DNA of 64,000 bases from positions 6,236 through 70,235 of the forward strand of contig DASQAK010000052.1 in assembly GCA_035635755.1 (NCBI GenBank), given 5' to 3'. This DNA comes from Candidatus Methylomirabilota bacterium (GTDB lineage Bacteria > Methylomirabilota > Methylomirabilia > Rokubacteriales > CSP1-6). Below the pieces are notes generated by a model. It was not told the origin of the DNA and ran no database searches. It saw only the letters and a list, made by a program, of their open reading frames with translations. The position numbers were made by a program, and so were the translations under genes. This document shows, in pieces, positions 6,204 to 58,273 of the stretch (position 1 is the first letter of the stretch; every line of letters begins with the position of its first letter).

Positions 6204-6248
6204 GCGGTGACGCTCCCCGGGAAGATTCGCTCGCGTGATTCCCGATAA

Positions 6249-32691: not shown

Positions 32692-32701
32692 GACGCTCCG
32701 G

Positions 32702-36516: not shown

Positions 36517-37557
36517 CTAGTATACGTTCTTGAGGAGATCGCGCGGATCGGGCCAGGGCGCCTGCTTGGCCTCCGCCACCGCCTTGGCGATCTCCTCGGC
36601 GATCTGCGACTCGAACTGTTGGAAGGTCGCGCTGCTCGCGAGCCCGCGTGCTTTCAGCGCCTTGGCGCTCCGCTTGACGGGATCCCTGCGCTTCCAGGAT
36701 TCGATCTCACGCGCGGTCCGATAGCCGCGCTCAGAGTCATCCAGGGGGCCGACGTGCTCGAGCCAACGATACGTCGCGCACTCGAGGAAGACCGGCCCCC
36801 GGCCCCCCCGGCACTGCGTCACCGCCCGCCGGGCGCTGCGGTACACCGCGTACACATCATTGCCGTCGAGCTCCTCCGCGGACATCTCGTACATCTGGGC
36901 GCGTCGGTAGATCTCGGTGCCTCGAGGGAGCCGGACAGACAGCGGCGAGTGCGTGGCATACAGGTTGTTCTCGCACACGAACACCACGGGCAGGCGCTTG
37001 ACAGCCGCCCAGTTCAAGCTCTCGTGAAAGACGCCTTCGTCAACCGCGCCATCGCCGAAGAACGTCACGGCGACCCGCGAGGATCCGTCCATCTGGAACG
37101 CGAGCGCGGATCCCACGGCGACGGGGATTGTCTGAGCGAGGATGGCGGAGGCCGCCACCATTCCCACGGACATGTCGCTCAAGTGAACGGAGCCGCCTCG
37201 GCCGCGAGCCGCCCCACTCTCCCGCCCATAGAGCTCGGCCACGAGCGCCGCCAGATTGCCCCCCTTGGCCAGATAGTGCGCATGGCAGCGGTGTCCGCTG
37301 AAGACGACGTCGTCGGACCGGAGGGCGGCACACATTCCGACCGCCACCGCCTCTTGTCCGACGGAGAAGTGCGTCGGAGTACGCATTTCCTGCTCTTTGT
37401 AGAGCTCCGCCAGCTTCTCCTCCACGCGCCGCGCGCGCAGGAGCTCGAAGTGCAGGCGCAGGCTCGACTCAGCAGACAGCCCTCGAAGAGACGACCCGTC
37501 GACCCGGCGTGCAGCCCGGGCGGAGCGCCTGGCCCTCGGCCGCTTCTTCCCCGTCAT
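36517..37557 (-). CDS. ThDP-dependent 2-oxoacid dehydrogenase E1 component, alpha subunit
   Basis: 'RRVEEKLAELYKEQEMRTPTHFSVGQEAVAVG', 'GDGAVDEGVFHESLNWAA' (ThDP GDG motif). 30-aa basic N-terminal extension may not be translated. Confidence 0.8.
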   Translation of the reverse strand: MTGKKRPRARRSARAARRVDGSSLRGLSAESSLRLHFELLRARRVEEKLAELYKEQEMRTPTHFSVGQEAVAVGMCAALRSDDVVFSGHRCHAHYLAKGGNLAALVAELYGRESGAARGRGGSVHLSDMSVGMVAASAILAQTIPVAVGSALAFQMDGSSRVAVTFFGDGAVDEGVFHESLNWAAVKRLPVVFVCENNLYATHSPLSVRLPRGTEIYRRAQMYEMSAEELDGNDVYAVYRSARRAVTQCRGGRGPVFLECATYRWLEHVGPLDDSERGYRTAREIESWKRRDPVKRSAKALKARGLASSATFQQFESQIAEEIAKAVAEAKQAPWPDPRDLLKNVY

Positions 37558-38592: not shown

Positions 38593-40188
38593 TCACATCG
38601 ACCGCCGGCGGAACACGCCGTATTCCATCCCCAGCGCGCCCTGAACCACGCTGACCTGCTCGAACCGCTCGCTCAGCAGCTTCCGGATGAGTCGGGCCAC
38701 CTCTGGTCGGTACCCGTCCAGGGCATCGAGGGAAGCGGGCGACACGATGGCGTACTGGACGTCCCGACCAAGCCAGCGCTCCACGTCCGCCGCCGACCAG
38801 GCACCGCTCCGGTGCAGAATCGCCTCGTCGGCGCCAGGGGGCGCCACGGTGCCGCCGGGCGACATCAGTTGCTGGACATAGGCCTGGAGCCCGGCAAGGT
38901 AGATCGGCATCGGCTGCGCGAAGAGGAATACCTTCGTTCCCGCAGGCACCAGTGCTCGAAGATCCGAGGCCGCCCGGTCGGTCATCTCGATCGGGTCCTG
39001 TTTGAACGGTGTCGGGATCGGCCGGGGCATGAGCGGGTGGCGGACGGCCACCACGGAGAGCACGAGACCGGCAGCGAGAGAAGCCGCGACGATTCCACGC
39101 GTGAGCCGATCCATATCGGCGCGGGCGAGGCAAGTCGCGCTTACGACCCCCAGCACCACGGCGAAGAGGGGGGCGAACGAGGGAAAGTATGCCGGCACGA
39201 TCTTGAAGTTCATGCGGAGCATGACGAAGTGCCAGGCCAGGATCCAGAGCCAGAGGCCGCCTATCACGCCCAGTCCGCGGCGCCACGGCATCCATGCCGG
39301 TCCTCTTCCGCGAAGCGCCAGCAGGCCACTTGCAACGAGAAGGCCCCCCGCCGTCAGCGTCCAGGACTCGTACCGTCGCGCGAAGATCACGAACGACCAG
39401 ATCTGCTCCTGCCGCCCCGCCTCCCGCACGGGGGAGAATTCGAGAATGGAGCGGTAGCCCAGAGGCTCCACGAAGCCGCGCAGCACGGGCACGTGCGCCA
39501 GGAGCTTCAGATGCGTGGTATCGGCGGCGAGAAACAGCGCGGGAGGAACCACGGCGATGAGCGCGACGGCGAGACGCTCGGCGCGGCCTCGGGCCACGCT
39601 GAAGGCCCACACGAGAAAGAACGGCAGGGACGGGAAAAGATTCGTTCGAGTAAAGAAGAGGAGCGACGCGATGGTCATCCCGATCGCTCCTCGCCACCGC
39701 ATCTCCTCTTTCAGCAACACCCACACGGCCGTCATCAGGACGAGGGCCGTCATGGAATGGTACGTGGCCGTCGCGAAGTAGCCGACCAGGGTGCCTTGCG
39801 TCGCGAGGAGCAGTCCTGCGAGCACCCCCGCCGTGTCGCCGCCAACTCTGCGCGCCACGGCCACCGTGGCCAGCAGCGCGACGAGTCCTATCCCCAGCGA
39901 GACGAGGCGCGCCGCCCAGAGACTCCGCCCGAAGATCTCCTGTGACGCTCCGAGCACGTAGAAGGGCAACGGCATACGCTGCCCCGTCATCTCGTCCTGG
40001 AACAGAGCGATCTGCCCGGTGAGGGCCATCTGGCCGAGAGCGAGAAAGGACGACTCGTCATCCCACGTGATGAGGCTGCGAGAGTAGAAGACGCCGATCG
40101 CCAGATACACGACAACCATCACGGCCACGGCCCCCCGGAACGTCATCGAGGACATCCCGGGCGGTGGCGGAGTCGCGGCCTCGGTCAT
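38593..40188 (-). CDS. GT-C-fold membrane glycosyltransferase (PMT/ArnT-like, GT39/GT83-type)
   Basis: 531 aa, >10 predicted TM helices. N-terminal loop motif 'LFQDEMTGQRMPLPFY' is shared with the paralogue at 56644..58269. Confidence 0.6.
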   Translation of the reverse strand: MTEAATPPPPGMSSMTFRGAVAVMVVVYLAIGVFYSRSLITWDDESSFLALGQMALTGQIALFQDEMTGQRMPLPFYVLGASQEIFGRSLWAARLVSLGIGLVALLATVAVARRVGGDTAGVLAGLLLATQGTLVGYFATATYHSMTALVLMTAVWVLLKEEMRWRGAIGMTIASLLFFTRTNLFPSLPFFLVWAFSVARGRAERLAVALIAVVPPALFLAADTTHLKLLAHVPVLRGFVEPLGYRSILEFSPVREAGRQEQIWSFVIFARRYESWTLTAGGLLVASGLLALRGRGPAWMPWRRGLGVIGGLWLWILAWHFVMLRMNFKIVPAYFPSFAPLFAVVLGVVSATCLARADMDRLTRGIVAASLAAGLVLSVVAVRHPLMPRPIPTPFKQDPIEMTDRAASDLRALVPAGTKVFLFAQPMPIYLAGLQAYVQQLMSPGGTVAPPGADEAILHRSGAWSAADVERWLGRDVQYAIVSPASLDALDGYRPEVARLIRKLLSERFEQVSVVQGALGMEYGVFRRRSM

Positions 40189-41351
40189 TCGGTGAAACGC
40201 TTCTGCACCAGCCGCGCGTCGATGGGAACCGAGCGAAGCACGTCGACGATGCGCGGCGCGGCGTGGCCGTCACCGTAGGGATTGGCGGCCGCGCGGGCCC
40301 GGGCGCGGAAGGCCGGCGCCTGGGCCGCCTCGATGCCCCGCAAGATGTCCTCGCGCGAGGGCTCGACGTCGATGACGTTGGCCCCCCGGAGCCGTCCGCG
40401 CTGGCGCGAGCCCACGTTGACCACGGGCAGCCCGAAGGAAGGCGCCTCGATGAGACCGCTCGAGGAATTGCCGATCATGAGATCGGCGTGGCGCAGCAGC
40501 GAGAGGTAGGGCCGCTCGCCCAGGCTCTTGGCGAGCCGGCAGCGCCGGGAATGGCGCCCCGCGAACTCCTCGATCCGCTCGATGATGAGCCGCCCCGACG
40601 TGTCGGCATTGGGATACGTGATGACGATGAAGCCGTCCGTCTTCTCGATCGCGGCCAGGAGCTCGTCGATGTGGGCGGCGGTGTCCCGGTACTCGAGGGT
40701 GACGGGATGAAAGGTGACGAGGAGCCAGGGCCCCGCCTCGGGCAACCTGAGCTCGCGGGCCAGCGCCGCGCGGGACAGCGGCTCCGTGGTGGCGAGGCGG
40801 TCGAGGCCGGGTGCGCCGACGGAGTGGATGCGCCACGGCTCCTCCCCCATGGCGGCGATGCGCCTCGCATGGGGCTCCGCCGAGGCGAAATGCAGATGCG
40901 CGAGCTTGGTGATCGCATGGCGGATCTGATTGTCCATCGCCCCTTCGGAGAGCTCGCCGCCGTGGATGTGCGCCACGGGGAGGGCAAAGGGAAGCGCGGC
41001 CACCGCCGCCGCGAGCATCTCGAAGCGGTCGCCCAGGACCACGACCACATCCGGGCGTATGCGCGCGAACACCTCTCCGAAGCCCGCCACTCCTCGCCCC
41101 GTGGCGGCCGCCACCGCCTCCGGCGTGTCGTCGCCCCCGAGCATCTCGACGCGGGCGGAGATGGGAAAGCCGTCCGCCTCGATGTCGCGTACCGTCAGGC
41201 CAAACTCGCTTGCCAAATGCATGCCCGCCACCAGGAGAAGCAGCTCGAGGTCGGGCGCGCGCCGCAGCGCCTCGAGCACCGGCCGCAGGTGGCCGTAGTC
41301 CGAGCGGCTGACCGTGACCACGCCGATGCGCCTCGCGGCCCCCTCCGTCAT
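40185..41351 (-). CDS. UDP-N-acetylglucosamine 2-epimerase family (NeuC-like, hydrolysing type)
   Basis: 388 aa; 'VAHIHGGELSEGAMDNQIRHAITKLAHLHF'. ATGA overlaps on both sides. Confidence 0.8.
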   Translation of the reverse strand: MTEGAARRIGVVTVSRSDYGHLRPVLEALRRAPDLELLLLVAGMHLASEFGLTVRDIEADGFPISARVEMLGGDDTPEAVAAATGRGVAGFGEVFARIRPDVVVVLGDRFEMLAAAVAALPFALPVAHIHGGELSEGAMDNQIRHAITKLAHLHFASAEPHARRIAAMGEEPWRIHSVGAPGLDRLATTEPLSRAALARELRLPEAGPWLLVTFHPVTLEYRDTAAHIDELLAAIEKTDGFIVITYPNADTSGRLIIERIEEFAGRHSRRCRLAKSLGERPYLSLLRHADLMIGNSSSGLIEAPSFGLPVVNVGSRQRGRLRGANVIDVEPSREDILRGIEAAQAPAFRARARAAANPYGDGHAAPRIVDVLRSVPIDARLVQKRFTE

Positions 41352-42397
41352 GGCTCCGCCAGCGCCTCCCAGCCGATCACTTCGTCGGCGGCGATATCGC
41401 GAGCGAGCGGGCGCCCGATCGCCTTGTCCAGATCGGCGGGGGAGATGCCCGTGCCGGGCCGCTTGATCAGGACGTCTTCCGCCCCGAGCCGCGCGCCCGC
41501 CCTGAGTGCCCGCGCCGCCACCAGGCTCTTCCGCGCCACCCGGCGGGTGTCGAGCTCCGACGGCATGGGGCGCTTGGTCCCGTCACCGAGCGCGGACTCC
41601 ACGGCCCGGATGGCCCGGACCATGGCCGCGAACTCGACGGGATCGAGGGAGGCGCGATGATCGGGACCGGGCAGGGTCTTGTCGAGCGTCAGGTGCTTCT
41701 CGATGATGGCGGCGCCGCGCGCGGCTGCCGCCACCGCGATCTCGATGCCCAGCGTGTGATCGGAGAAGCCCACGGGACAGCCGCATCGCGCGGCGAGGGC
41801 ATCCATGGCGCGCAGGTTGACCTCGGCGGCGGGAGCGGGATACGCGGAGAGACAGTGGAGCACGGCCAGGGGCGGATTGCCGGCGGCCCGGATGGCCGCC
41901 ACCGCTTGCTCGACTTCGTCCAGGCTCGACATGCCGGTGGACAGGATGATGGGACGGCCCTTGGATGCGAGGTGGCGCAGCAGCGGGAGATTGGTGATCT
42001 CCCCCGACGGCACCTTGAAGAGGGCGACCCCGAGCCTGTCCAGTACATCTGCGCTCTCCTCGTCGAAGGGCGCCGAGAAGAACGTGAGCCCGCGCTTCGC
42101 GGCCCGGTCCTTGAGCTCCGCCAGCACCGCCGTGGCGAGCTCGAGTCGCGCGAGCATGTCGCGCTGGCTCTCGTCCGCCCCCGTGGTCTCGACCTGGTAT
42201 CCCGCCTTGGGCGCGCCGCGGGTCAGCAAGGCGTCGACGCGAAACGTCTGGAACTTGACGGCGTCCGCCCCGCTCTCGGCCGCGGCGTCCACCAGGCGGC
42301 GGGCGAGCGCCGGATCGCCATTGTGATTCACGCCGGCCTCGGCCACGATGTAGATACGCCCGCCCGCGCCGAAGCAGGGCAGGCCCGGCGCGGTCAC
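41348..42397 (-). CDS. N-acylneuraminate-9-phosphate / nonulosonic acid synthase family (NeuB/LegI/PseI-like) with C-terminal SAF domain
   Basis: 'IYIVAEAGVNHNGDPALARRLVDAAAESGADAVKFQTF'; C-terminal SAF/AFP-like domain. GTGA overlap with upstream stop. Confidence 0.85.
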   Translation of the reverse strand: MTAPGLPCFGAGGRIYIVAEAGVNHNGDPALARRLVDAAAESGADAVKFQTFRVDALLTRGAPKAGYQVETTGADESQRDMLARLELATAVLAELKDRAAKRGLTFFSAPFDEESADVLDRLGVALFKVPSGEITNLPLLRHLASKGRPIILSTGMSSLDEVEQAVAAIRAAGNPPLAVLHCLSAYPAPAAEVNLRAMDALAARCGCPVGFSDHTLGIEIAVAAAARGAAIIEKHLTLDKTLPGPDHRASLDPVEFAAMVRAIRAVESALGDGTKRPMPSELDTRRVARKSLVAARALRAGARLGAEDVLIKRPGTGISPADLDKAIGRPLARDIAADEVIGWEALAEP

Positions 42398-44340
42398 GAT
42401 CCGCTCCGCGCCGCGCTGATCTCCTCGGCCAATGCCAGCACCCGCTCCCCCAGGCGGCCGTCGACGGGATGAACGTAGCGCGCGGAGAAGGCGCGCCCCC
42501 GCTCGATCATGACCGCCCGCTCCGCGGGATTCCAGAGCACGACGCGGAGCGTGTCCGCGAGGGCCGCGGCCTTGCCCAGGTCCACCCGCCGGACCGCGCC
42601 CGCGCTGACATAGGGCGGCATGTACTCGCCCTCGAAGTCCTTGCCGGCCGTCTGCACGGCCACCACCGGGCAGCCCAGGGCCATGGCCTCGAGGCCGGCC
42701 ATGGACGTGACCATGACGGCGGCGTCCGCGGCCCCGAAGAGGCGATGGATGTCGTAGTCCTTGGTCAGGAGGGCCTCCGGCCATCCCCACTCGCCCACCT
42801 GCTCGCGCAGACGCTCGAGATCCTCGTTCGGATGGACCTTGACGATGAAGTCCACGTCGCCCAGCTGACGCGCAGCCGCCACCATGGTCCGGTAGAAGCC
42901 TTCTCTCTCCTGCGCCGAGAAGAGCAGCGAGACGTACTTGGACACGAAGACCACGAGGGGGCGGCCGGGGGCGAGGCTGAAGTCGTGGCGGACCTCCTCG
43001 CGCAGCCGCCCCGTGGGCACCAATCGCGCGGCGTTGGAGCGGGGGTCGCCGACCACCGACACCCGTCCCGCCTCGATGCCGAGCTCCCTGACCAGGCTCT
43101 CCCGGAGATGCTCGCCGATGACGACGAGGCGGTCGCCGATATCGAAGCGGCTGGTCAGATCGCGAGGAAGGACGAGAGTTCCCGAGAAGAGCAACGAGGG
43201 AATGCCATTCGCGCGGGCGACGAAGGCCATGGCCCGCTCGCCGAGGCGCCGGTCACTCGTGACGACGAGGGCGTCCGGACGTGTGGCCCTGACGGCACGG
43301 TACGCGGCTTCCTGGCACAGGAGGGCAGCCAGGAGGCTCGCCTCGGAGCCGGCCAGGAATGGCCGGAGGACAGGCCAGAGCGAGACGCCTCGCCACGACA
43401 CTCGCTCCGCGAGCTCCGGATCGCGCTCGGCACGTCGGAGCGCGCGGCGGAACAGCGGCCGGAACCGTCGGACGAGCCGCGCCGCCGTGGCCTGGGGAAG
43501 ATAGTCCATGAGATAAGCCGTAGGCACACCCGCTGCGCTGAGGTCGCTGACACGGGCCGAGAGCTCCGGGTCCTCGTTCGACTGCGCGACGAGACGGGGC
43601 GACGCGCCGGCCGAGCGCACGGCCTCGATCAGAGGGTCCACGAGCAGATGATGGCGGCTCCGGCACGTCACGAAGAGGATGCGCCGGCCCTCGGCGCGCT
43701 GAGAGACGGGGGCATGCCGCTCCTGACGGAGCAGCTGCTGGAGATTGATCCGATCCTCTCGCGGAAAGAGCGCCGCGTAGGCCCGCGCCGCGAGCTGCGG
43801 CAGGGGCGAGCGCGAGACGCCGCGCACCCCCAGGCCGCGGGCCCGCGCCACGAGGCGGGCCACCTGCTCCGTCATCGAGGCGCCGCTCAGCAGCCGCAGC
43901 TGATCGGGCTTCACCTCGTCGAGCACCCGGTTGATGATACCGAGCCGCTCCACCACCTCGAGCCGGACCCGAAGTCTCTTGCCCACCGTGAGCAGATCAG
44001 GCAGCCAGACGCCGCGGTACGAGAGATCGAGCTCGTCCGACGTCGCCTGCCACCAGCCGGTGACGAGGCGTTGCGTCAGCGATTCGAGCTCTCGCGAGTC
44101 GACGGCGTAGGCTTCCTCGTCGTAGTAGTGCACGGCGACCGTGGGGGGAATGGCCGAGGCGTCCACGAGCTGGCGGGCGCCCAGCACGGTCACCTCATGG
44201 TCCTCGATCAGGCGCTTGACCGCGCGGGTCACGGCCCGCCGGTACCAGTGGGCATAGGCGAGAAAGGATCGACGCACCATGGGCCGGCGAAACTCGCCGA
44301 TGCTCCGGGTCGCCTCGGTGACGAGGAGGAGCCGGATCAC
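42394..44340 (-). CDS. large two-domain GT-B-like transferase with HP motif (TagF/KpsC/sialyltransferase-like); candidate ulosonic-acid or glycerophosphate transferase
   Basis: C-terminal ~649 aa of ORF 42394..45036. 'FIVKVHPNED' HP motif typical of CDP-/CMP-dependent GT-B transferases. N-terminal 230 aa of the ORF rejected as artefact. Confidence 0.45.
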   Translation of the reverse strand: MIRLLLVTEATRSIGEFRRPMVRRSFLAYAHWYRRAVTRAVKRLIEDHEVTVLGARQLVDASAIPPTVAVHYYDEEAYAVDSRELESLTQRLVTGWWQATSDELDLSYRGVWLPDLLTVGKRLRVRLEVVERLGIINRVLDEVKPDQLRLLSGASMTEQVARLVARARGLGVRGVSRSPLPQLAARAYAALFPREDRINLQQLLRQERHAPVSQRAEGRRILFVTCRSRHHLLVDPLIEAVRSAGASPRLVAQSNEDPELSARVSDLSAAGVPTAYLMDYLPQATAARLVRRFRPLFRRALRRAERDPELAERVSWRGVSLWPVLRPFLAGSEASLLAALLCQEAAYRAVRATRPDALVVTSDRRLGERAMAFVARANGIPSLLFSGTLVLPRDLTSRFDIGDRLVVIGEHLRESLVRELGIEAGRVSVVGDPRSNAARLVPTGRLREEVRHDFSLAPGRPLVVFVSKYVSLLFSAQEREGFYRTMVAAARQLGDVDFIVKVHPNEDLERLREQVGEWGWPEALLTKDYDIHRLFGAADAAVMVTSMAGLEAMALGCPVVAVQTAGKDFEGEYMPPYVSAGAVRRVDLGKAAALADTLRVVLWNPAERAVMIERGRAFSARYVHPVDGRLGERVLALAEEISAARSGS

Positions 44341-44960
44341 GGACGGCCTCCGCGGGGACGCGCGGGAACGCCCATCACCGTTTCGCCCGCCGGCACATCC
44401 GAGATCACCACGGCGCCGGCGGCGACTTCGGCTTCCTTCCCCACCGTCAGGTTCGGCAGCACGGTTGCCCGGGCGCCGAGGAAGCCGCCCGCCTCGATGG
44501 TGACGCCGCCGCAGAGGACGACGCCGGGCGAGAGGTAGGCGTGCGCTCCGATGCGGCAGTCGTGCTCGACGATGACTCCGCTGTAGATGACGGCATTGTC
44601 CCCGACCTCGACCGACGCGCCGAGCACGCCGCCCGCGAACACCACGACGCCTTCGCCGAGGTGGCAGGTGCGTGACAGCACGGCGCGCGGGTGCACCAGG
44701 GTGGCGACCACGATACCCGAGGCCTTGAGAAGCTGGAAGAGCGCGGCGCGACGGTCGAGGGCGGCGTTGCCGATGCCGACCACGGCGGCATCCATGGCGC
44801 GGGCCGCCGCCAGCGCGGTCAGGTTCTCGTCCCGGCCCAGAACCGACGGGCCGGGCGAGCGATCGGTGAAGCCGGCGACGGTCCAGCCGCACTCGACCGC
44901 GAGATCGGCTACGGCCCGGCCGTGGCCTCCAGCGCCCAGGATCAAGAGTCGCTTGGCCAC
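44337..44960 (-). CDS. sugar N-acetyltransferase, NeuD/PglD/LegH family (hexapeptide repeat)
   Basis: 207 aa; 'LLILGAGGHGRAV' N-terminal Rossmann-like and C-terminal left-handed beta-helix repeats. Confidence 0.8.
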   Translation of the reverse strand: MAKRLLILGAGGHGRAVADLAVECGWTVAGFTDRSPGPSVLGRDENLTALAAARAMDAAVVGIGNAALDRRAALFQLLKASGIVVATLVHPRAVLSRTCHLGEGVVVFAGGVLGASVEVGDNAVIYSGVIVEHDCRIGAHAYLSPGVVLCGGVTIEAGGFLGARATVLPNLTVGKEAEVAAGAVVISDVPAGETVMGVPARPRGGRP

Positions 44961-44966
44961 GGCTCG

Positions 44967-45692
44967 CTAGCTCCGGCCCGGCGCGAGGGCCGCGCGACCT
45001 TCTCGCAAGAGCAGCTCGGCGAGGAGGAAATCCCACTCCGTGTCGATGTTCACGGAGGCCTCGAAATCCATCACGATGCCGCGGTTGTCCTCACCGAGGA
45101 TGTGCCCGTGGCGCATCAGGGTCTCGTAGCGCGTCACGTACACCGCGCCGGAGGGCTGATAGACGGGCGGCGCGTCCTGGCGACGCACATAGGTGTGCCC
45201 CTCGGGGAAGAGCGCCACCGTGCGGTCCCCGTCGAGCGTCTTCATGAAGTATGGATGATACGAGGCCTCCGAGAGCGTCTGGGCCGAGTCGGCGCCCGTC
45301 TCGGCGACCTTCCGGATCGTCGCGTCGATCTCGGCGCCCCGGCGGAACGGCGAGGTCGGCTGAAGGGTCACGATCACGTCGGGCTTCACGCCCGCCGACG
45401 ACTCGAGCCAGCGCACCGCGTGCTGGAGGACGCCGAGCATCCCCGCCTCGTCGGTGGCGAGCCCCGCCGGCCGCAGGAACGGGACGGGGAGACCCTGACG
45501 CTCGGCCTCGGCGGCGATCTCCTCGCTATCCGTGGAGACGATGAAGCGCGTGAGCAGCGCGGACTCGCGGGCGGAGGCGATGGCCTGCCCCAGGAGCGAG
45601 AGCGCGCCGAGCTTGCGCAGGTTCTTGCCCGGCAGGCCCTTGGAGCCGCCGCGCGCGGGAATGACCCCGAAGGCGTACGGCGTCGCCGTCAT
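44967..45692 (-). CDS. acylneuraminate cytidylyltransferase family (CMP-nonulosonic acid synthetase, NeuA-like)
   Basis: 241 aa; 'FGVIPARGGSKGLPGKNL' signature. Confidence 0.85.
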   Translation of the reverse strand: MTATPYAFGVIPARGGSKGLPGKNLRKLGALSLLGQAIASARESALLTRFIVSTDSEEIAAEAERQGLPVPFLRPAGLATDEAGMLGVLQHAVRWLESSAGVKPDVIVTLQPTSPFRRGAEIDATIRKVAETGADSAQTLSEASYHPYFMKTLDGDRTVALFPEGHTYVRRQDAPPVYQPSGAVYVTRYETLMRHGHILGEDNRGIVMDFEASVNIDTEWDFLLAELLLREGRAALAPGRS

Positions 45693-45695
45693 CCG

Positions 45696-46679
45696 CTAGA
45701 CCCGGACCCAGCGCCGCTCCGCCGAGGCCTTCACGGCGGCGTCGATCACGCGCATGGTCTTGAGCCCGTCCCAGCCGTCGCAGGCGGGGGAGGCCTCGCC
45801 GCGGATGCAGGCCAGGAAGTGGCGGGCCTCCTCGACGTACATGTCGTTGAGCTGGCAGGCGAACGGATAGATCTCCCACCGGTTCGCCCTGGGATCGAAG
45901 ACCCGGATCTCGTTCTCGAATCGCCGCCACTGGATCACGCCCTCTTCGCCCATCAGCTCGAAGTGGCTGTGCACGTTCCAGGCAAAGAGGTTCATATGGA
46001 TGTTGCCCACCGTGCCCGAGGCGAAGCGTACGGTCAGGTCGGCGATGTCGTCGGTGGTGATCTCGAGGCTCGAGACGCGGTCGACCACCGCGCTGACCTC
46101 GGTGATCTCGCCGCAGAGCCACCGCATAAAGTCGATGGCATGGCTCTCGTCGAGCACGCAGCCACCGCCCTGCTTGGCGTCGGCCATGTAGAACGTGCGG
46201 TAGTCCTTGCCGGGATAGCGCGTGGTCAGGTGGTAGGCGTACTCGGTCCGCGCCGCGCGCACGGCCCCGATGCGCCCTTCCTTGAGCAGCTTCTCGGCGA
46301 GCAGCATGGGCGGCCAGTAGCGCCAGTTGTAGGCGGTGAGTACCTTGAGGCCCTTGGCGTCGCAGAGCTTGAGGAGGTCTTCCACGCCGTCCACGGACTG
46401 GGCGAAGGGCTTTTCGACCATGAGGTGCGCGCCGCGCTCGGCGGCCTGGCGGCCCAGGGCGAGGTGCGAGTCGGGCGGAGTGCAGATCACGGCGCCGTCG
46501 GCGCCCGCGAGGGCGGCTTCCGCCGTGGGCGCGATGGCCGCCCAGGGAAAATCCTTGGCCGCGGCCTCGCGCTGCGCGGGGGCGGCATCGTAGGCGGCGA
46601 GGCTCTCGACGCCGACCGTCCGGAAATTTCCGAGATGCCGGCGGCCGATCGAGCCCAGTCCGAGGACGGCGAGCTTCAT
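45696..46679 (-). CDS. Gfo/Idh/MocA-family oxidoreductase
   Basis: From 'MKLAVLGLGSIGRRH'; 'EKPFA'. ATGA overlap with upstream stop. Confidence 0.8.
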   Translation of the reverse strand: MKLAVLGLGSIGRRHLGNFRTVGVESLAAYDAAPAQREAAAKDFPWAAIAPTAEAALAGADGAVICTPPDSHLALGRQAAERGAHLMVEKPFAQSVDGVEDLLKLCDAKGLKVLTAYNWRYWPPMLLAEKLLKEGRIGAVRAARTEYAYHLTTRYPGKDYRTFYMADAKQGGGCVLDESHAIDFMRWLCGEITEVSAVVDRVSSLEITTDDIADLTVRFASGTVGNIHMNLFAWNVHSHFELMGEEGVIQWRRFENEIRVFDPRANRWEIYPFACQLNDMYVEEARHFLACIRGEASPACDGWDGLKTMRVIDAAVKASAERRWVRV

Positions 46680-48220
46680 CTCTTGGTCTCCAGGACGAGC
46701 CGCGGGGCGGGGGGGGGCGGCGGGTCCGCGGCGTGCAGGCGGTTCCATTCCTTCTCGTAGCGCTCGATGCGGGCGATGTCCCGCCGGACCATCAGCTCAC
46801 GCAGCCCGTAGAGCTCGACGGCGTTGAACTTCTTGGAGATGACGGCGGTGACCCGCGTGGCATCGCCCAGGTCCAGCAGAAATGCTTCGAGGTCTCCGTC
46901 GTACTGGTCGAGGATGCGCTGCTTGTTCGCGTAGTACCACTCCGTTCCCGGATACGGGGTGGCGAAGAAGGGCTTGACGTTGAGGCCGAGGCGATTCCAG
47001 GCGCGGATGTTGTCCTTGAGGCTGTCGAAGTCCTCGTCGGGGAAGCCCATCATCTGGTTGGGGATGGGCCGGATACCCGCCTCGAGCGTCCACTTGAGCG
47101 AGCGCTCGTTGGTCTCGGGAGTGGCGCCCTTGCCGATGGTTTTCATCACGCGCGCGGAGAAGCTCTCGTAGCCGTAGACGAGATGCGAGCACCCCGCCTG
47201 CTTGATGGCTCTCAACACCTCGGGCGAGCAGAGGGTGGCGTGGCTGGTGCCGCCCCAGTGGACGCCACTGCACTTCTCGGGGTCGTGGGGGACGCCGTCA
47301 CGCACACACTGGGGCTGCAGGCCCTCCTCGATCCAGAGCTTTGCGATATCCGTCAGCCACTTCTTGCCCGAGAACTGGTGCATGGTCATGAGGTTCTCGT
47401 CGAGGAAGCCGATGAAGTCCACCCCGAAGCGCTCGCGAGCGTACTTGACGAGGTTGACGACGTAGCGCGGGCTGTGGAAGCGGATCTTGCGGTCGTAGGT
47501 GAAGGCGACGTCGTTCTCGCCCTCCGCGTTCTCCTGGTGCTGCATGTCGCCCGCGATGCCCAGGTGGAAGCAGAAGCGGCAGATGAGCGAGCAGCCGTAG
47601 CTGGCGTTGATGTCGAGGCGCCGCTGGGCGAGCATGCCCTCCTCGGAGTAGAGCGCCATGCTGTTCTTGAAGTAGACCTCGAGCGGGAAGAGCTCCCAGG
47701 CCGGATAGGGCAGGCTGTCGAGATCCATGAGGAGGGGCTGCTCCGGGTTCAGCCTGGTCTTGCCCGAGGCGTCGCGCCAGATCAGCCCGGGAACGGCCGC
47801 CCAGTCGCGATTCCCCCCGTCCACCCGGCGAAGCAGCTCGGGAAAGGACACGAAGGCCTCGCCCACCACGCCCACGTCTATCCGAGGCAGGAAGCGCATG
47901 ATGTCGTGAGGCATGCTCGTGAGGAAGCCGCCCCCCGCCACCACCAGCGCCTGCGGGCAAAGCTCCCTGGCCATCTCGACGATCTGCTTGATCGAGCGGT
48001 ACGCCGTGGTGATGCCGCCGAGCGCGACCACGTCCCAGTGGTCCGCCTGCAGCACCTGGGCGATGACGGCATCCGAGGGGCGCCAGGCATTGTGGTCGTA
48101 CACCTGCACCTTGTGTCCCTGGCCCACCACGATGGCGGCGAGGAGGGCCATGCCGTAGGGCACATGACGCGGATCGTCCTCCTCGCGCATCAGCGGATTG
48201 ACGAACAGCACTTTAGCCAT
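46676..48220 (-). CDS. B12-binding domain radical SAM protein (class B radical SAM; putative methyltransferase)
   Basis: From 'MAKVLFVNP' (AAGGA RBS). N-terminal cobalamin-binding domain. 'YGCSLICRFCFH' CxxxCxxC radical SAM cluster motif. Confidence 0.8.
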   Translation of the reverse strand: MAKVLFVNPLMREEDDPRHVPYGMALLAAIVVGQGHKVQVYDHNAWRPSDAVIAQVLQADHWDVVALGGITTAYRSIKQIVEMARELCPQALVVAGGGFLTSMPHDIMRFLPRIDVGVVGEAFVSFPELLRRVDGGNRDWAAVPGLIWRDASGKTRLNPEQPLLMDLDSLPYPAWELFPLEVYFKNSMALYSEEGMLAQRRLDINASYGCSLICRFCFHLGIAGDMQHQENAEGENDVAFTYDRKIRFHSPRYVVNLVKYARERFGVDFIGFLDENLMTMHQFSGKKWLTDIAKLWIEEGLQPQCVRDGVPHDPEKCSGVHWGGTSHATLCSPEVLRAIKQAGCSHLVYGYESFSARVMKTIGKGATPETNERSLKWTLEAGIRPIPNQMMGFPDEDFDSLKDNIRAWNRLGLNVKPFFATPYPGTEWYYANKQRILDQYDGDLEAFLLDLGDATRVTAVISKKFNAVELYGLRELMVRRDIARIERYEKEWNRLHAADPPPPPAPRLVLETKR

Positions 48221-49226
48221 GATGGTCCTTCGCGGCGGTCTCGAGGAATGCGTCCAGAGTGGACGTGATGACGCCATCGCCGAAGAGCAGGCCGCCCTCG
48301 GTGCAGTTGAAGGTCTGGCAATCGGCATCGCGGGCCATCTCGAGAAAGACCTCGCGAAACCAATGATAGGTCGGGTCGCTGAACCACACTTCGCGCGTCA
48401 CTGGATTCTCGGTGTGGATGAAGGCCTCGCGGTGCCGGGCCTTCAGGAGGTCGACGAGTTCCCGGAAGTATTGCGTCTTCTCGTACGGCGTGTCCGGAGC
48501 ATATCCCAAATCGATGCCCACGAGTCCGATGCGCCGCTTCCCCAGCACGGCATGCGTGAGCACCCATGCCGAGGTGCCGACGTTGCCGCCGCCATTGAGA
48601 CAGGGCAGGCCGTTCATCTCCCAGAGACGACGCGAATGGCTACCGGGCTTGTCATAGTCGTCGTACATCGGGTTCCACCAGTAGAGTTCCATGCGCGTCT
48701 GCTGGCAACGCCGCACCACCGCTGGCGCCGCGGAGGTCGCCGCGGCCACCTTGATCTTCGGCCCGTACGTATCGACGAGGTCGACCAGCGTGCTGTTGGC
48801 GCCAAGCTCATCCTCGCCATGGACGGAATCCATCTCCTGGCGGCGGAAGTAATCGTCAGCGGGGACCTCTGTCAGCCTCGGGTCGCCGAACCAGCGGACG
48901 ATACGGTCCGGATGCGGGTCCACGCTCACCACAACATGAGGCACGACGCCCGCCCGCAAGCAAGCTCCGAGCGCCCCGTCAGCGGCAACGATGGTGCCGG
49001 GGAAGTTTGAGTCGCGCAGCCGCTCGATGCTTTGGCGTCGCCGAAGGCTTGGCCCAGCGCCCACGACGACGGCGGTATCCCCCGTGCCGAGCTGCGCGTC
49101 ACGAAGCTCGAGAACAGAGCGTCCGATGTATGGCCGATTGTCCTCGGCGTTCTTGAGGCCTTCGCTCGCCACATGCTCGAACGTGGCCGCCTCAAGCTCG
49201 CGGGCGATCTTTCTTCCCAGCTCCAT
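48213..49226 (-). CDS. DUF115 / MptE-like (motility-accessory-factor Maf-like) protein; putative nonulosonic-acid transferase
   Basis: 337 aa; 'TAVVVGAGPSLRR...TIVAADGA...VVVSVDPHP' matches the DUF115 Rossmann-like core. Confidence 0.55.
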   Translation of the reverse strand: MELGRKIARELEAATFEHVASEGLKNAEDNRPYIGRSVLELRDAQLGTGDTAVVVGAGPSLRRRQSIERLRDSNFPGTIVAADGALGACLRAGVVPHVVVSVDPHPDRIVRWFGDPRLTEVPADDYFRRQEMDSVHGEDELGANSTLVDLVDTYGPKIKVAAATSAAPAVVRRCQQTRMELYWWNPMYDDYDKPGSHSRRLWEMNGLPCLNGGGNVGTSAWVLTHAVLGKRRIGLVGIDLGYAPDTPYEKTQYFRELVDLLKARHREAFIHTENPVTREVWFSDPTYHWFREVFLEMARDADCQTFNCTEGGLLFGDGVITSTLDAFLETAAKDHHG

Positions 49227-49563
49227 CCTGACGCCCTTTCGCTGTTCTATCTTCCGTATCCGCTCGGCTCGCTGTCCTGCTGGTCGCCTCGCTTGCGGCT
49301 GCGGCTCCTCCGGCGGGACGCGCTTTCGCTGGTCCGTCTTCCGTATCCGCTCGGCTCGCTGTCCTGCTGGTCGCCTCGCCTGCGGCTGCGGCTCCTCCGG
49401 CGGGCTGCGCCTCGCCCTGCCACATCAAACTCTTCTTGCTCACGAAGCAGATGCTGCCTCCGAGACGCGAGAGGGCCTTCTTCTCGAATTCATCGGTCGA
49501 GTTCGCGGCATCCCCCTTGTCCTCGATCTTCGCGTCAACCTTGTAGTTGCCCTTGAGGAACTC
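49192..49563 (-). CDS. small protein (123 aa) with N-terminal charged domain and 2x 29-aa Ala/Gly/Ser/Thr-rich tandem repeats
   Basis: Perfect RBS AAGGAG 7 nt before ATG. Very high GC3 in the N-terminal half. 'MPEFLKGNYKVDAKIEDKGDAANSTDEFEKK...' then repeats 'PAGGAAAAGEATSRTASRADTED'. 3' end overlaps DUF115 start by 35 nt. Missing from the obvious track reading because it lies inside a longer artefactual ORF. Confidence 0.5.
   Translation of the reverse strand, partial: EFLKGNYKVDAKIEDKGDAANSTDEFEKKALSRLGGSICFVSKKSLMWQGEAQPAGGAAAAGEATSRTASRADTEDGPAKARPAGGAAAASEATSRTASRADTEDRTAKGRQDGAGKKDRPRA
49247..49420. repeat. tandem direct repeat, 2 x 87 nt (~95% identical) inside the small ORF
   Basis: 'ccgtatccgctcggctcgctgtcctgctggtcgcctcgc' recurs with 87-nt period. 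In frame (29 aa). Confidence 0.85.
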
Positions 49564-49571
49564 CGGCATGC

Positions 49572-50240
49572 TCAGCTCCTTTTCGCGATCCGCCCGCCCG
49601 TGCTGTCGCCGTTGCCCGCGGGCGAGGCCAGGCGCCTCAGCGTGAGGAACTTCTCGGGCGGCAGACCCAGGCGAACCAGGCCCGCCACGTGCCGTTCGGG
49701 CCTTTCGAAGGTGGCGACGACGATGCCGTCGACATCGGCCATGGGCAGCTCGGAGACCGGCCGCACAGGCAGGCCCAGGAAATGGCCGCCTCCCTCCCCC
49801 GCGAAGATCCCCACCGGCTCCAGCCCGAATTCCTTGAGGGTGAGGTAGGCCAGCTCGGCCGCCTCCCCGGTTCCGCAGAGCGCGATGCGCTTCATCCCGT
49901 TCCGCCCCAGCTGCCCCATGGCCTCCCGGAGATTGTCGCGGGTCCGCCGGTAGAGCTGCAGTGAATGTCCCATGTACTCGTAGGTCAGGCGGGCCTTCTC
50001 CGTAGCGCCCTTGGCCGTGAGCATGTAGCGGAGGCGCTTGCGGGCGGAGGGCTTGCTGGAGAACTCCCGTATCTTGATGAAGCCCTTCCCGGCCAGCCGC
50101 TTCAGATACAGGTTGGTCAGCCCGAGGGCCACGCCCATTCGCGCGGCGAGGGCGCGCTGGGTCAGGGGCGCCCCCTCCTCGATGGCGGTCAGGATCTCGA
50201 GCTCGCGCTCGATGTGACGCTCGATGGCCATGGCGTTCAA
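49572..50240 (-). CDS. winged-helix transcriptional regulator with C-terminal Rossmann-like (Rex-C-like) domain
   Basis: 222 aa; 'LTQRALAARMGVALGLTNLYLKRL' wHTH; C-terminal 'KRIALCGTGEAAELA...GIVVATFERPE'. Confidence 0.55.
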   Translation of the reverse strand: MNAMAIERHIERELEILTAIEEGAPLTQRALAARMGVALGLTNLYLKRLAGKGFIKIREFSSKPSARKRLRYMLTAKGATEKARLTYEYMGHSLQLYRRTRDNLREAMGQLGRNGMKRIALCGTGEAAELAYLTLKEFGLEPVGIFAGEGGGHFLGLPVRPVSELPMADVDGIVVATFERPERHVAGLVRLGLPPEKFLTLRRLASPAGNGDSTGGRIAKRS

Positions 50241-50275: not shown

Positions 50276-51784
50276 CTAGGAGCTCGCTCTCAGGAAGGCC
50301 ACGAACCTCCGCGGGTCCACGAGCTCCCTGGCGTAGCGGAGATTGTCCGTCCCGGTGTGAGTCAGCCAGAGAAACCCCGTGTAGACGCCGAGGGCAAGCA
50401 CGAATCCCCCGGCCAGGGCTGCCGGCTCGGGCGCGCCGGCGGCGGCGAGGCCTTCCCGGGTCGCCTCGTTGACGGCCACGAGCACGGCGAAGCCCGTCAG
50501 GTACGCCACGGTCACCCGCTGGAAGCCGATGCCGGCCAGCTCGCGCGTCCATCGGATGAACACCCAGCAGGGGAAGATCACCATGAGCAGACGCACGGCC
50601 GCCGCCCCCGTGCCACCGAGGGTCGGAACCAGTACCACCATGGCGACAAGATAGACGGCCAGGCGCAGGAGAACGACGCGCACGAACCGTCCGTGCTGAT
50701 CCATGGCGTAGAGGATGAACTGATACGGATTGAAAGCCGTCTGGGCCAGGGCCGCCAGCACCAGGACCATGAGCGGCGCGACTGCGAGAAGGAAGCGCCG
50801 GCCATAGAGCAGGGTGAGGATGGGCTCACGCAGCGCCCAGAGGCAGAAGGCGGCCGGCACCGCGATGAAGAGTAGCCGGTCCATGGCCGCGGCGAAGACC
50901 CGCCGGCTCTCGGCCGCGGCCTCGAGCCCCGGTGTGGCGAAGAGCCGAGAGAGCCGCGACAGGAGAAGCTGGAAGGGATACTGGTTGAGCCGGCCGAGCA
51001 CTTCCCAGAGTGCCCGCGCGACCTGGTAGTACCCGGCGGCGGTCAAGCCCGCCCAGCGCGCGACGAGAACACGATCGAGAGAGTCCTGGAGCATGCCGAT
51101 GGGACTCGTGATGAAGAGCGGGCGCGCGTAGCTCCAGTAGGCCTGAAGCGTCGCGCGATCGGGACGACGCAGCGCGATGCCTCTGCGGAAGACGAGGATG
51201 TACCCGCCCACGAGGATCTCCGTGGCGCCCTCGACCACCAGGGCCGCCGCCACCCAGCGGATGTCGGGTGCCCAGATCAGCACGGTCATCGTCACCGCGA
51301 AGCGGAGCCCCTTGCCGGCCACCTCCGTGATCGCGTGGGCGCTCGCCCACTCCCGTCCCACGAAGGCGACGCTGAGGGTCGCCGCGAGATTCATCAGGAG
51401 CTGGGCGACGAGGACGAAGAGAACGACCTCGAGGGGCACGCTCGTCGGGATCACCAGGGATCCCCAGCGGGCCGCTGCGAGCACGAGGAGGAGGGCCGCG
51501 ACCTGGATCACCAGCTGGAGCGCGGCCATGGTCCCCACGCAGCGGCCGAGGTCGCCGCCTTCCGCCACCCGCTTCTGGTGCGCCTGATTCAAGCCGGGGA
51601 GCAGGAACGCGGTCAGCATCCCCACCAGGCCCATGCTGAAACCCAGGATGCCGAGGGCGTCGGGTCCGAGCCAGCGGGCGATGAGGATCGTGGTGACGAA
51701 GCCGAAGGCGCTGGCGAGACCGGTGCCGAAGAAGAGGACGACAGACTTCCTGCCGAGATTCCCCTCGTGGCTCACGGCGTTCAA
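50276..51784 (-). CDS. polysaccharide biosynthesis protein / oligosaccharide flippase (Wzx-like, MOP superfamily)
   Basis: 502 aa, ~12-14 TM helices. 'RWLGPDALGILGF' typical of PST-family flippases. Confidence 0.75.
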   Translation of the reverse strand: MNAVSHEGNLGRKSVVLFFGTGLASAFGFVTTILIARWLGPDALGILGFSMGLVGMLTAFLLPGLNQAHQKRVAEGGDLGRCVGTMAALQLVIQVAALLLVLAAARWGSLVIPTSVPLEVVLFVLVAQLLMNLAATLSVAFVGREWASAHAITEVAGKGLRFAVTMTVLIWAPDIRWVAAALVVEGATEILVGGYILVFRRGIALRRPDRATLQAYWSYARPLFITSPIGMLQDSLDRVLVARWAGLTAAGYYQVARALWEVLGRLNQYPFQLLLSRLSRLFATPGLEAAAESRRVFAAAMDRLLFIAVPAAFCLWALREPILTLLYGRRFLLAVAPLMVLVLAALAQTAFNPYQFILYAMDQHGRFVRVVLLRLAVYLVAMVVLVPTLGGTGAAAVRLLMVIFPCWVFIRWTRELAGIGFQRVTVAYLTGFAVLVAVNEATREGLAAAGAPEPAALAGGFVLALGVYTGFLWLTHTGTDNLRYARELVDPRRFVAFLRASS

Positions 51785-52090: not shown

Positions 52091-52858
52091 ATGGGCCTGA
52101 GAAAGCTCGCGAAAAGGGTCCTCGGCGTCCAGCGTCAGCCGACGTACTACCTGCCGTGGCTGACGCGCCCTCATCTCCAGTGCGCCCTCGTGCTCAGCAA
52201 CGTCGAGTCGCGCTTCAAGGTCGGCTACAACCGCGGGAGCTTCCCGGTCTCCGTGGTCCAGTACGATGCCGACGGCGCAGTGGCGGGTCGGCACGAGGTG
52301 ACGCTGCCCGACGCGGTGGAGGCCGTCGAGCTGCCCCTGCCGTCCGCTCCGGGCGGATGCGGCTTCGCCACGGTGAGCGGCGAGCGCATCAACTCCGATC
52401 TCTACGTCACCCTCTCCGACGGCCTCGCCTATACCGCGACCCACGGTCGCGGCGAATTCATCGAGCGCTATGCGCTCCCGGGCCGCTTGCTCCTGGCCAT
52501 GATCGGCGGGCTCCTGGGACTGGCGGGCCGAGCCATTCCCGCCTTCGTTCGCCACCAGTACGCGTACGTCGGCCCCGACAGCCGCTCGCACCTGCTCGTG
52601 ATGAACCTGTCCAACGTGACGAACCGCGTCCGCGTCGTGGCCAGCTGGGAGGGGCGCGTCCTTGGCGCCCGGCTTCTGCGGCTCCCTCCCATGGGCTCGA
52701 CGCTCCTGGACATCGGGACGTTTGGCTCAGCCTCGGGCGGCACCGCCACGGAGGTGTGGAGGCTCCGGCTCGAGGGCGCGGCGTGGTTCAACCTGTACGT
52801 CGTCGGCGCGGGTGCCCGGAACCTCGAGGGGCCGCTGTCGCTGATGCATGTCAAATAG
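52091..52858 (+). CDS. hypothetical protein (255 aa), no recognisable family
   Basis: Diverse composition and high GC3; first gene of plus-strand operon. Stop overlaps the next gene's ATG by 11 nt. Confidence 0.5.
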   Translation: MGLRKLAKRVLGVQRQPTYYLPWLTRPHLQCALVLSNVESRFKVGYNRGSFPVSVVQYDADGAVAGRHEVTLPDAVEAVELPLPSAPGGCGFATVSGERINSDLYVTLSDGLAYTATHGRGEFIERYALPGRLLLAMIGGLLGLAGRAIPAFVRHQYAYVGPDSRSHLLVMNLSNVTNRVRVVASWEGRVLGARLLRLPPMGSTLLDIGTFGSASGGTATEVWRLRLEGAAWFNLYVVGAGARNLEGPLSLMHVK

Positions 52859-53561
52859 CGTCTCGGCCCTGCTCTCGGCCACGTTCTACGAGCCGGGCTA
52901 CGACCACCTCGTCGAGCTGGTGCACCAGCGCGATCCGGAGGCGCGCCGCCGGCTCGCCTCCCTCGATCTCTCCGCCTACGGCCCCGACGGCAAGCTGCTC
53001 CTCGAGCATGGCCTGGACACGCGGGAGGAGACGCTGGACCTGGGCGCCCTCCTCGCCCCCACCGCGCGCGAGCACGGGCGCGTCATGGCCGTGTTCGACG
53101 CGCGCTACGAGGAAGACGCGTTTCCCTACCGCCCCCACCACTACGCCTACGTCCATCGCGCGGGCTCCGCCACCCCGGCGCTCTACTATGCCGTCAGCGC
53201 GGCCCTCGGGGGCGTGCCCGACCGGATCGGGGACATGTCCCGCATCAACAACTTCGACACCTATGTCTTCCGTCGCGGGCCCCACGCCGCGCGGTACTCG
53301 GTCATGCTCGGCAACGTCGGCCGCTTCGCTCCCACAGAGGCGCAGGTCTTCGCCTACTACGGTGCCGAGCGCGTGGAGGAGACGGTCCCCCTCGGACCCC
53401 GAGCCCATGCCGAGGTCGCCCTCGCGCCCGAGCGCGGCGGGCAGCCCCTCACCCGCGTCGAGACCAAGTCGCTCTTCCGTCTGGCCGGATACGTGGCCGG
53501 CCGTCGGGACCCCTCGGGCGACCTCGTGCTCTTCGACCACCTCTTCACGTTTTTCAAGTGA
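52848..53561 (+). CDS. hypothetical protein (237 aa), no recognisable family
   Basis: Coding-like composition; His/Tyr-rich segment 'YRPHHYAYVHRAG'. Confidence 0.5.
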   Translation: MSNSVSALLSATFYEPGYDHLVELVHQRDPEARRRLASLDLSAYGPDGKLLLEHGLDTREETLDLGALLAPTAREHGRVMAVFDARYEEDAFPYRPHHYAYVHRAGSATPALYYAVSAALGGVPDRIGDMSRINNFDTYVFRRGPHAARYSVMLGNVGRFAPTEAQVFAYYGAERVEETVPLGPRAHAEVALAPERGGQPLTRVETKSLFRLAGYVAGRRDPSGDLVLFDHLFTFFK

Positions 53562-58269: not shown

Positions 58270-58273
58270 GCCC

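Follow-up and report, generated by a model that had tools for sequence, protein, structure and literature searches.

The 64,000-nucleotide stretch of DNA analyzed here (hereafter the window), from contig DASQAK010000052.1 of a Candidatus Methylomirabilota bacterium, carries on its minus strand a gene for a radical S-adenosylmethionine (SAM) enzyme with a B12-binding domain (46676..48220; 514 amino acids; Pfam PF02310 and PF04055), hereafter the rSAM. This gene belongs to a minus-strand array, extending from about 2.6 to 51.8 kb, that corresponds to a surface-glycan locus. In the order of transcription, the genes around it encode a Wzx flippase, a MarR/EPS regulator, a small open reading frame (ORF), a DUF115 protein, the rSAM and a Gfo/Idh/MocA oxidoreductase, followed by a cytidine monophosphate (CMP)-nonulosonic acid (NulO) synthetase, a NeuD-type acetyltransferase, a GT-B-like protein, NeuB, and NeuC. 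A preliminary description of this DNA had placed the rSAM in a NulO module beside the DUF115 gene and a repeat protein, and both genes were indeed found directly upstream of it. These neighbors had been treated as incidental, whereas our comparisons indicate that the small protein, the DUF115 protein (hereafter mini-Maf) and the rSAM form a unit conserved across phyla.

The rSAM Gene and Its Product

The rSAM gene is tightly packed between its neighbors: at its start, the ATG (48220) and the DUF115 stop codon overlap (ATGGCTAA), and at its end the TGA at 46678-46676 shares an ATGA with the ATG of the Gfo/Idh/MocA gene. Scanning the window revealed no terminator-like signal above background between the genes around the rSAM. 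A mechanical list of ORFs also proposed a longer version of 550 amino acids starting at 48328, but we retained the start at 48220 because the homologues begin at MAKVLF. With a GC content at third codon positions (GC3) of 0.90, the gene has a coding signature. The gene at 46676-48220 is a genuine ORF and encodes a genuine class-B-type radical SAM enzyme.

The two domains were both recovered above the Pfam cut-offs, PF02310 at residues 19-129 (47834..48166, minus strand; E 3e-14, 53 bits for a cut-off of 32) and Radical_SAM PF04055 at residues 204-403 (E 1e-15, 58 bits for a cut-off of 29.5). The first is a Rossmann-type, B12-binding-like domain that aligns to the cobalamin-domain region of TokK, the closest match of the rSAM among PDB sequences (E 5e-7, restricted to the N-terminal domain), and it lies ahead of the rSAM core, as expected for class B. 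The second, a partial TIM-barrel core, includes the CxxxCxxC motif of the radical SAM superfamily (residues 208-219, YGCSLICRFCFH), predicted to bind the [4Fe-4S] cluster and SAM (47570..47593, minus strand). The N-terminal B12-binding domain and the CxxxCxxC motif announced in the preliminary description are therefore present, and the cluster cysteines, on which that assignment depended, have not been lost, as C210, C214, and C217 do not vary among 74 aligned relatives, the most distant of which are at 27% identity, nor in another alignment (A1).

The AlphaFold2 model of the protein (pLDDT 86, pTM 0.86) has a class B rSAM fold. Searching with Foldseek, we obtained matches to TsrM, OxsB, AprD4, MgmA, TokK, and CysS, with E values of 5e-14 to 2e-19 for the best entries, and the top TM-scores were those of AprD4 (0.63/0.70). 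The matches to TsrM, OxsB, MgmA, TokK, and CysS span both domains over about 450-500 columns. Class B enzymes have no conserved cobalamin-ligand motif, and their B12-binding residues are not definable from sequence; the use of cobalamin by the window rSAM is assumed from its B12-binding-type domain.

None of the named class B equivalog models, i.e., BchE, HpnJ, HpnR, ApyD, KedN5, PhpK, BzaD, AprD4, and the methyl-coenzyme M reductase (MCR) Gln methylase, reached its NCBIfam cut-off with the rSAM. The best score was that of ApyD (89 bits for a cut-off of 750), followed by BchE (81 for 481) and HpnJ (77 for 578), both with E around 1e-22, and AprD4 (NF033070) obtained 27 bits for a cut-off of 500. 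More than 1500 homologues exist, and the best 120 of them, which have only automatic names such as "YgiQ" or "BchE-like cyclase," are 66-98% identical to the rSAM over the full length. When sequences are clustered at 50% identity, the family reduces to essentially one cluster, with few full-length relatives at 42-47% and 35-39% identity, beyond which only the general class B background was reached. On these sequence comparisons, the rSAM clade is a tight orphan clade. We discarded an auxiliary Fe-S cluster formed by conserved C305, C317, and C344: the first two residues fall in a family-specific insertion, and members from alphaproteobacteria and SAR11 have T/K and W in their place. Finally, tblastn searches produced matches at 25-27% identity in two plasmids and none in phages.

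Mini-Maf and the Small Protein

The gene preceding the rSAM (48213..49226, minus strand) encodes a 337-amino-acid MptE-like/DUF115 protein, translationally coupled to the rSAM, in which PF01973 was the only domain found (E 5e-18, Pfam). The best PDB match of its structural model (pLDDT 81) was the Maf glycosyltransferase 5mu5 (E 4e-8), followed by the archaeal MptE kinase (Foldseek). Its profile could also be aligned with the central domain of a full-length Maf from a flagellar glycosylation island described below (L072; hhalign probability 83%, E 1e-5), the two having in common the motifs AGPSL, DxAL, GGxVxTAA, and TEGG. The protein has therefore the MptE-like central catalytic domain of Maf. 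As neither the Maf N-terminal domain PF20157 nor the C-terminal domain was detected with Pfam, and the PseD model NF050051 gave only 29 bits for a cut-off of 670, we called it mini-Maf. It resembles the Maf NulO glycosyltransferases (5mu5; PseD/PseE/Maf1) by its MptE-like central domain and its NulO gene context, and we infer that it is a putative NulO transferase. It differs from them in lacking the terminal domains and in being encoded in a glycan locus with Wzx and an initiating transferase, with no flagellin nearby; no flagellar gene was found in the 64-kb window. An apparent divergence of mini-Maf between the window and a Rokubacteria locus (L004; 67% in tblastn) was dismissed as an artefact, probably of frameshifts in the metagenome-assembled genome, the DNA being 92% identical throughout.

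The small ORF upstream of mini-Maf (49192-49569, minus strand) encodes 125 amino acids and is preceded by the ribosome-binding site aaaggag. It consists of a conserved core of about 55 amino acids without annotation (49405..49569, minus strand) and a variable tail (49192..49404, minus strand) that overlaps the start of mini-Maf by 35 nucleotides and carries two tandem copies of an 87-nucleotide repeat (49230-49404; period 87, 2.0 copies, 94% matches, TRF). In locus L004, which is 92% identical, nothing corresponds to the region 49229-49414 of the window. As delimited with a hidden Markov model (HMM), the core reads MxEFLKGNY, a charged linker and EFEKKALSRLGGSICFVSKKxxxW in the window. In the family, it comprises an N-terminal [LI]-[KR]-G-N-[YF], a variable charged linker and FE..A...LGGS[IM].[FY]V.K...W, with G7, N8, F28, G37, G38, S39, and V43 invariant in the alignment. 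An HMM built from three copies matched 57 sources, and 61 ORFs were matched in another scan, always adjoining a mini-Maf gene. Clustering at 90% identity gives at least 2660 clusters for this family, every one of them annotated as "hypothetical," and no match to the small protein was obtained in Pfam, PDB sequences or PHROGs. Two resemblances were set aside: that of RLGGSI to the flagellin segment LSSGLRINSAK, which would have made the small protein a flagellin mimic (hhalign probability 1.6%), and that of RLGGSIAFV to the glycyl-radical motif, which was noticed by eye and is probably due to chance.

Conservation of the Triad Across Lineages

Scanning one genome per species, we recovered 56 loci with rSAM relatives at 52-98% identity. 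They originate from Rokubacteria/Methylomirabilota (the window being 98% identical to Rokubacteria isolate AR4), Nitrospira/Nitrospirota, Rhodospirillaceae, Xanthobacteraceae, Stellaceae, Polyangia, Elusimicrobia, and Solibacteraceae, as well as from two single-cell genomes of Pelagibacteraceae (SAR11) and two Yanofskybacteria of the candidate phyla radiation (CPR). The tblastn searches with the window proteins placed the DUF115 gene immediately upstream of the rSAM at about 47 of the 59 loci; at some seven others the two were parted only by inserted genes, such as the class I methyltransferase and polysaccharide deacetylase found between mini-Maf and the rSAM in L022, and in one the DUF115 gene was downstream, the rest of the 59 being incomplete or broken by frameshifts. 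NeuB, NeuC, and the CMP-synthetase were nearly always present within 10 kb of the rSAM in the fetched loci (tblastn). In Nitrospira, the triad has the CMP-synthetase on one side and NeuB on the other; in alphaproteobacterial loci, it comes immediately after the CMP-synthetase. In Rokubacteria loci, the MarR/EPS-type regulator is kept upstream of the triad, and the Gfo/Idh/MocA gene comes after the rSAM. The small protein, mini-Maf and the rSAM are a conserved three-gene unit, present in at least eight bacterial lineages and nearly always within CMP-NulO operons, which are of the legionaminic/neuraminic type.

No protein of the cluster is better conserved than the rSAM, which has cross-phylum identities of 52-66%, versus 38-53% for NeuB and 26-42% for the CMP-synthetase. 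This conservation, above that of the sugar-forming enzymes, would fit a small, invariant feature of the substrate. The export machinery varies among the triad loci, being either Wzx, a PglK/MsbA-like ABC exporter, or Wzm/Wzt. A half-transporter with ABC_membrane and ABC_tran domains lies directly upstream of the small-protein gene in L022 (4979-6905) and L067 (8169-9950), the equivalent place being occupied by Wzx in the window and by Wzm/Wzt with a Wzt_C domain in L002. The NulO pathway, a Maf-type protein and a member of the rSAM clade were constant in all contexts, together with a variable acceptor side (flagellin once, otherwise the small protein).

The two Pelagibacteraceae loci (L050 and L054) contain the full triad in native low-GC SAR11 DNA (GC 25-28%). 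We dropped the argument that SAR11 has no use for B12 and that the rSAM would consequently need no cobalamin: SAR11 is described in the literature as B12-auxotrophic, not B12-independent, and these loci are uninformative either way. With the SAR11 rSAM, a lineage described as B12-auxotrophic would gain a further enzyme that potentially requires cobalamin.

Distant Relatives and Fusions

An MptE-like neighbor was kept at every level of rSAM identity that we tested, namely 47% (L060), 43% (L063 and L064), 39% (L065), 36% (L073), and 35% (L066). Three MptE-like genes and a 50-amino-acid copy of the small protein are found in L063/L064. In L073, the order is rSAM, small ORF, MptE-like gene, and this locus, which lacks a NeuC-type epimerase, is possibly of the pseudaminic type. 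The third MptE-like protein of L063 (9575-10510, plus strand) weakly matched phrog_4603, "alpha-2,3-sialyltransferase" (E 4.7e-4), which is consistent with MptE-like proteins being sialyltransferase-like. The same locus includes many ORFs without Pfam or PHROG match and, just upstream of the small-protein gene, a 423-amino-acid ORF (5668-6939, plus strand) that looks by eye like a B12-domain/rSAM protein without CxxxCxxC and is possibly a degenerate rSAM paralogue. A second, distant B12-rSAM paralogue (22-25% identity) was observed 3-9 kb from the triad in some Rokubacteria, Acidobacteria, and others (L012, L022, and L024).

At 31-36% identity, the longer rSAM relatives are fusions. The B12-rSAM module is associated in these proteins with NeuB and SAF domains (P0242), with a GT9 heptosyltransferase, with a GT-B-like domain or with a class I methyltransferase, and in one case (P0145) the Maf N-terminal domain precedes the rSAM. 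The latter protein, Maf_N-rSAM, is encoded in the flagellar glycosylation island L072, together with flagellin, FlaG, FliD, an MptE-like protein, a full-length Maf, a 4,6-dehydratase-type gene, a CMP-synthetase, NeuB, NeuC, NeuD, and an aminotransferase, followed by FliB and FliS; no copy of the small protein was found in this island. Four relatives at about 30-40% identity (P0142, P0144, P0147, and P0196) contain one or two inteins each, with LAGLIDADG homing endonuclease domains. A look through cluster members for cultured carriers of distant relatives yielded metagenomic ones only.

The Surrounding Glycan Locus

The other genes of the minus-strand array encode an initiating sugar-phosphate transferase, glycosyltransferases of the GT2 and GT4 families, many class I methyltransferases, nucleotide-sugar dehydratases and epimerases, a PtmE-like CBS/nucleotidyltransferase and the Wzx flippase. 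The Wzx-type flippase (50276..51784; Polysacc_synt) heads the operon segment of the rSAM and is followed by the MarR/EPS-type winged-helix regulator (49572..50240; HTH_24/MarR, with TIGR04176 MarR_EPS at E 2e-18, under the cut-off). Downstream of the rSAM, the Gfo/Idh/MocA oxidoreductase (45696..46679; Pfam) is ATGA-coupled to it when its start is taken at M24. Then come the CMP-NulO synthetase, a cytidylyltransferase (44967..45692; PF02348, PseF-like at E 1e-39, under the cut-off), and a NeuD/PglB-family sugar N/O-acetyltransferase (44337..44960; TIGR03570, 194 bits for a cut-off of 161). The next gene, whose start is approximate, encodes a GT-B-like "surface carbohydrate" transferase (42394..44394) with weak Capsule_synth, Glyco_trans_1_4, and BFO_1060 matches and a 666-amino-acid homologue in L001. 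It is followed by the NeuB-type NulO synthase (41348..42403, start approximate; TIGR03569, 444 bits for a cut-off of 400) and the NeuC-type hydrolysing 2-epimerase (40185..41351; TIGR03568, 452 bits for a cut-off of 236), all of these genes being on the minus strand. The NeuB-type synthase, NeuC-type epimerase and CMP-synthetase that define a CMP-NulO cluster are thus all present in the window, the last with CTP_transf_3.

Three membrane transferases of the PMT_2/GT-C type (ArnT/PMT-like) were also observed, at 38593-40188 (minus strand), 56644-58374 (minus strand), and 60178-62352 (plus strand), the last two lying just outside the array and the last being fused to an LmeA-like lipid-binding domain. 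They suggest periplasmic transfer from polyprenyl-linked sugars. Three other minus-strand genes, encoding a transaldolase-family protein (26249-27112), an HldE-like kinase/cytidylyltransferase (31156-32742), and a thiamine-dependent E1 dehydrogenase component (36517-37557), hint at a heptose or branched-chain sugar pathway. Two adjoining plus-strand ORFs (52091-52858 and 52848-53561), divergent from the glycan operon, had no Pfam match but a GC3 of 0.89-0.91, a strong sign of coding.

Discussion

The preliminary description had suggested that the rSAM could methylate a carbon of either the sugar or the small protein, and the comparative data lend support to both candidate substrates. As a composite reading that we put forward tentatively, the rSAM may be a tailoring enzyme that uses radical chemistry and is coupled to NulO transfer of the Maf type, with the NulO being C-methylated by cobalamin chemistry; here we infer the sugar substrate, the methylation, the use of cobalamin and the role of the small protein. 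A reduced [4Fe-4S] cluster would cleave SAM to generate the 5'-deoxyadenosyl radical, which would remove hydrogen at one of the unactivated carbons of the NulO, the sugar being at that stage either still CMP-NulO or newly transferred by mini-Maf. The substrate radical would then be quenched, most likely by methyl transfer from methylcobalamin, to yield a C-methylated NulO, and the small protein would be an accessory subunit or an acceptor coupling mini-Maf and the rSAM.

We favor the NulO as substrate because the triad is located within sugar operons, because the genes inserted in it encode sugar-tailoring enzymes, because relatives are fused to NeuB or glycosyltransferases, and because the rSAM is conserved beyond the sugar-forming enzymes. 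The fold class also offers precedents, with AprD4 acting on paromamine and Fom3 on 2-HEP-CMP. C-methylation is our leading guess since methylation is the majority chemistry of class B, most characterized enzymes of which are methyltransferases.

Fom3, the class B cobalamin rSAM C-methyltransferase of fosfomycin, has the same B12-binding plus rSAM architecture, and the substrate that it methylates at an unactivated sp3 carbon, 2-HEP-CMP, is CMP-activated (PMC8158854), as in the reaction that we propose for CMP-NulO. Unlike the proposed substrate of the window rSAM, that of Fom3 is a phosphonate and not a sugar, Fom3 has no Maf-like or small-protein partner, and it was not among the NCBIfam or PDB sequence matches of the rSAM. 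AprD4 (PDB 6fd2), the radical SAM 1,2-diol dehydratase of apramycin biosynthesis, gave the best superposition and has a carbohydrate substrate, but it is only 19-20% identical to the rSAM and occurs without Maf or NulO context. TsrM, TokK, CysS, OxsB, and MgmA have a common fold with the rSAM at 13-18% identity, and none of them is linked to NulO or Maf genes; the substrates of these class B enzymes differ, being Trp, carbapenem and cystobactamid precursors, a dAMP-type nucleotide and an MCR glutamine.

Several observations weigh against C-methylation of the NulO. To our knowledge, no C-methylated NulO has been described, and some class B enzymes, such as OxsB, BchE, and AprD4, do not methylate. 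The small protein accompanies the rSAM everywhere, so that a peptide substrate would fit equally well; it is even present in L063, where no NulO genes were found within 14 kb. The Maf_N-rSAM fusion suggests action at a protein acceptor rather than on a free nucleotide sugar, and the leading N-terminal NCBIfam matches of the rSAM, although far under the cut-offs, are enzymes of ribosomally made, post-translationally modified peptides (RiPPs), ApyD and rSAM_ocin_1. Lastly, a literature search of incomplete coverage returned no paper joining "nonulosonic" and "radical SAM." Pairing radical SAM with pseudaminic acid, with flagellin glycosylation or with DUF115 gave nothing relevant in searches of the same incomplete coverage. 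These negatives are suggestive only; within the searchable literature, they point to no earlier description of the module that the small protein, mini-Maf and the rSAM make up.

If the small protein itself were the substrate, as in RiPP-like systems, the rSAM would take hydrogen from a residue of the invariant LGGS-I-x-F-V region and methylate or cross-link it, and mini-Maf would O-glycosylate the same peptide, e.g., at invariant Ser39, with the NulO produced by the surrounding genes. We regard this as somewhat unlikely. Practically all loci have the small protein, with its invariant core residues, next to mini-Maf, including those at 36-43% rSAM identity, and the persistence of this protein in L063 would be readily explained. 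The flagellar island shows the complementary pattern, with flagellin and a Maf_N-rSAM in place of the small protein. MgmA and TsrM, which methylate proteins or peptides, are among the top structural matches, as are ApyD and rSAM_ocin_1 among the N-terminal HMM matches, and an ABC_membrane-type exporter directly precedes the small gene in several loci. This exporter alternates, however, with Wzx and Wzm/Wzt, which is typical of the export of lipid-linked glycans and not of peptides. A conserved small protein does adjoin the rSAM, as a precursor peptide would in a RiPP cluster, its modification being a conjecture, but neither a RiPP recognition element nor a leader protease, nor several precursor genes, were detected in Pfam searches of the rSAM, mini-Maf, and neighboring genes. 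In addition, the triad resides in sugar operons where the inserted genes are sugar-tailoring ones, and the fusions of the relatives involve NeuB and glycosyltransferases, not peptide-processing domains.

The rSAM could also act on the NulO or on a hexose precursor without methylating it, by AprD4-like 1,2-diol dehydration, epimerization or rearrangement, and possibly without cobalamin; this we consider unlikely. AprD4 dehydrates sugar diols with the help of a partner reductase; it performs no methylation, and its B12-like domain does not bind cobalamin. The TM-scores of this sugar-modifying enzyme, the highest obtained, speak for such a function, and OxsB, a cobalamin enzyme that does not methylate, was another top structural match. 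In Rokubacteria, the ATGA-coupled Gfo/Idh/MocA gene could complete a deoxygenation, but it is not adjoining in the Nitrospira or alphaproteobacterial loci. The low identity to AprD4, the NCBIfam score far below the AprD4 cut-off and the prevalence of methylation among characterized class B enzymes all argue against this possibility.

A further combination, to which we give a still lower probability, would unite protein-templated glycosylation and radical modification in the triad: mini-Maf would place the NulO on Ser39 of the small protein and the rSAM would methylate or cross-link the conjugate. If true, the product would represent a new class of NulO-bearing ribosomal glycopeptide, or else a protein primer or carrier for a modified NulO before its hand-over to the surface glycan, and the system would be a non-flagellar counterpart of flagellin glycosylation.

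A known methylating enzyme of legionaminic acid clusters is PtmH (Cj1325/6), a methyltransferase making Leg5AmNMe7Ac (PMC3766260; PMC13317340). PtmH resembles the rSAM in the role proposed here, as a methylating tailoring enzyme encoded in such clusters, and differs by its description as an acetimidoyl N-methyltransferase, annotated as "putative methyltransferase." We rejected it as a counterpart of the rSAM, the literature retrieved presenting it as an N-methyltransferase with no sign of rSAM or B12. It is very improbable that the rSAM is itself a PtmH-like acetimidoyl N-methylase, although PtmH is a known NulO methyltransferase, since N-methylation needs no radical chemistry and we found no mention of radical SAM for PtmH in the literature retrieved, or that it is unrelated to the NulO pathway and acts on a lipid, hopanoid or pigment as do HpnJ and BchE, a function evoked by the names of its homologues and by the E values of the BchE and HpnJ models but contradicted by their scores, far below the cut-offs, by an adjacency kept in at least eight lineages and by the NeuB and Maf_N fusions, which argue against coincidence.

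NulOs, i.e., sialic, legionaminic, and pseudaminic acids, are displayed on the surfaces and flagella of bacteria, where they influence how hosts and phages recognize the cells. The tailoring steps that we know of for these sugars all use polar chemistry. An rSAM genetically locked to Maf-type transferases would therefore mean an unrecognized radical modification of NulOs or of their acceptor, in abundant environmental lineages such as Nitrospira, Rokubacteria, SAR11, and CPR. The triad offers a testable three-gene unit together with a new family of small proteins with thousands of members, and such a modification would also explain what a large and tightly conserved orphan clade of class B rSAM enzymes, now named "BchE-like cyclase" or "YgiQ," does.

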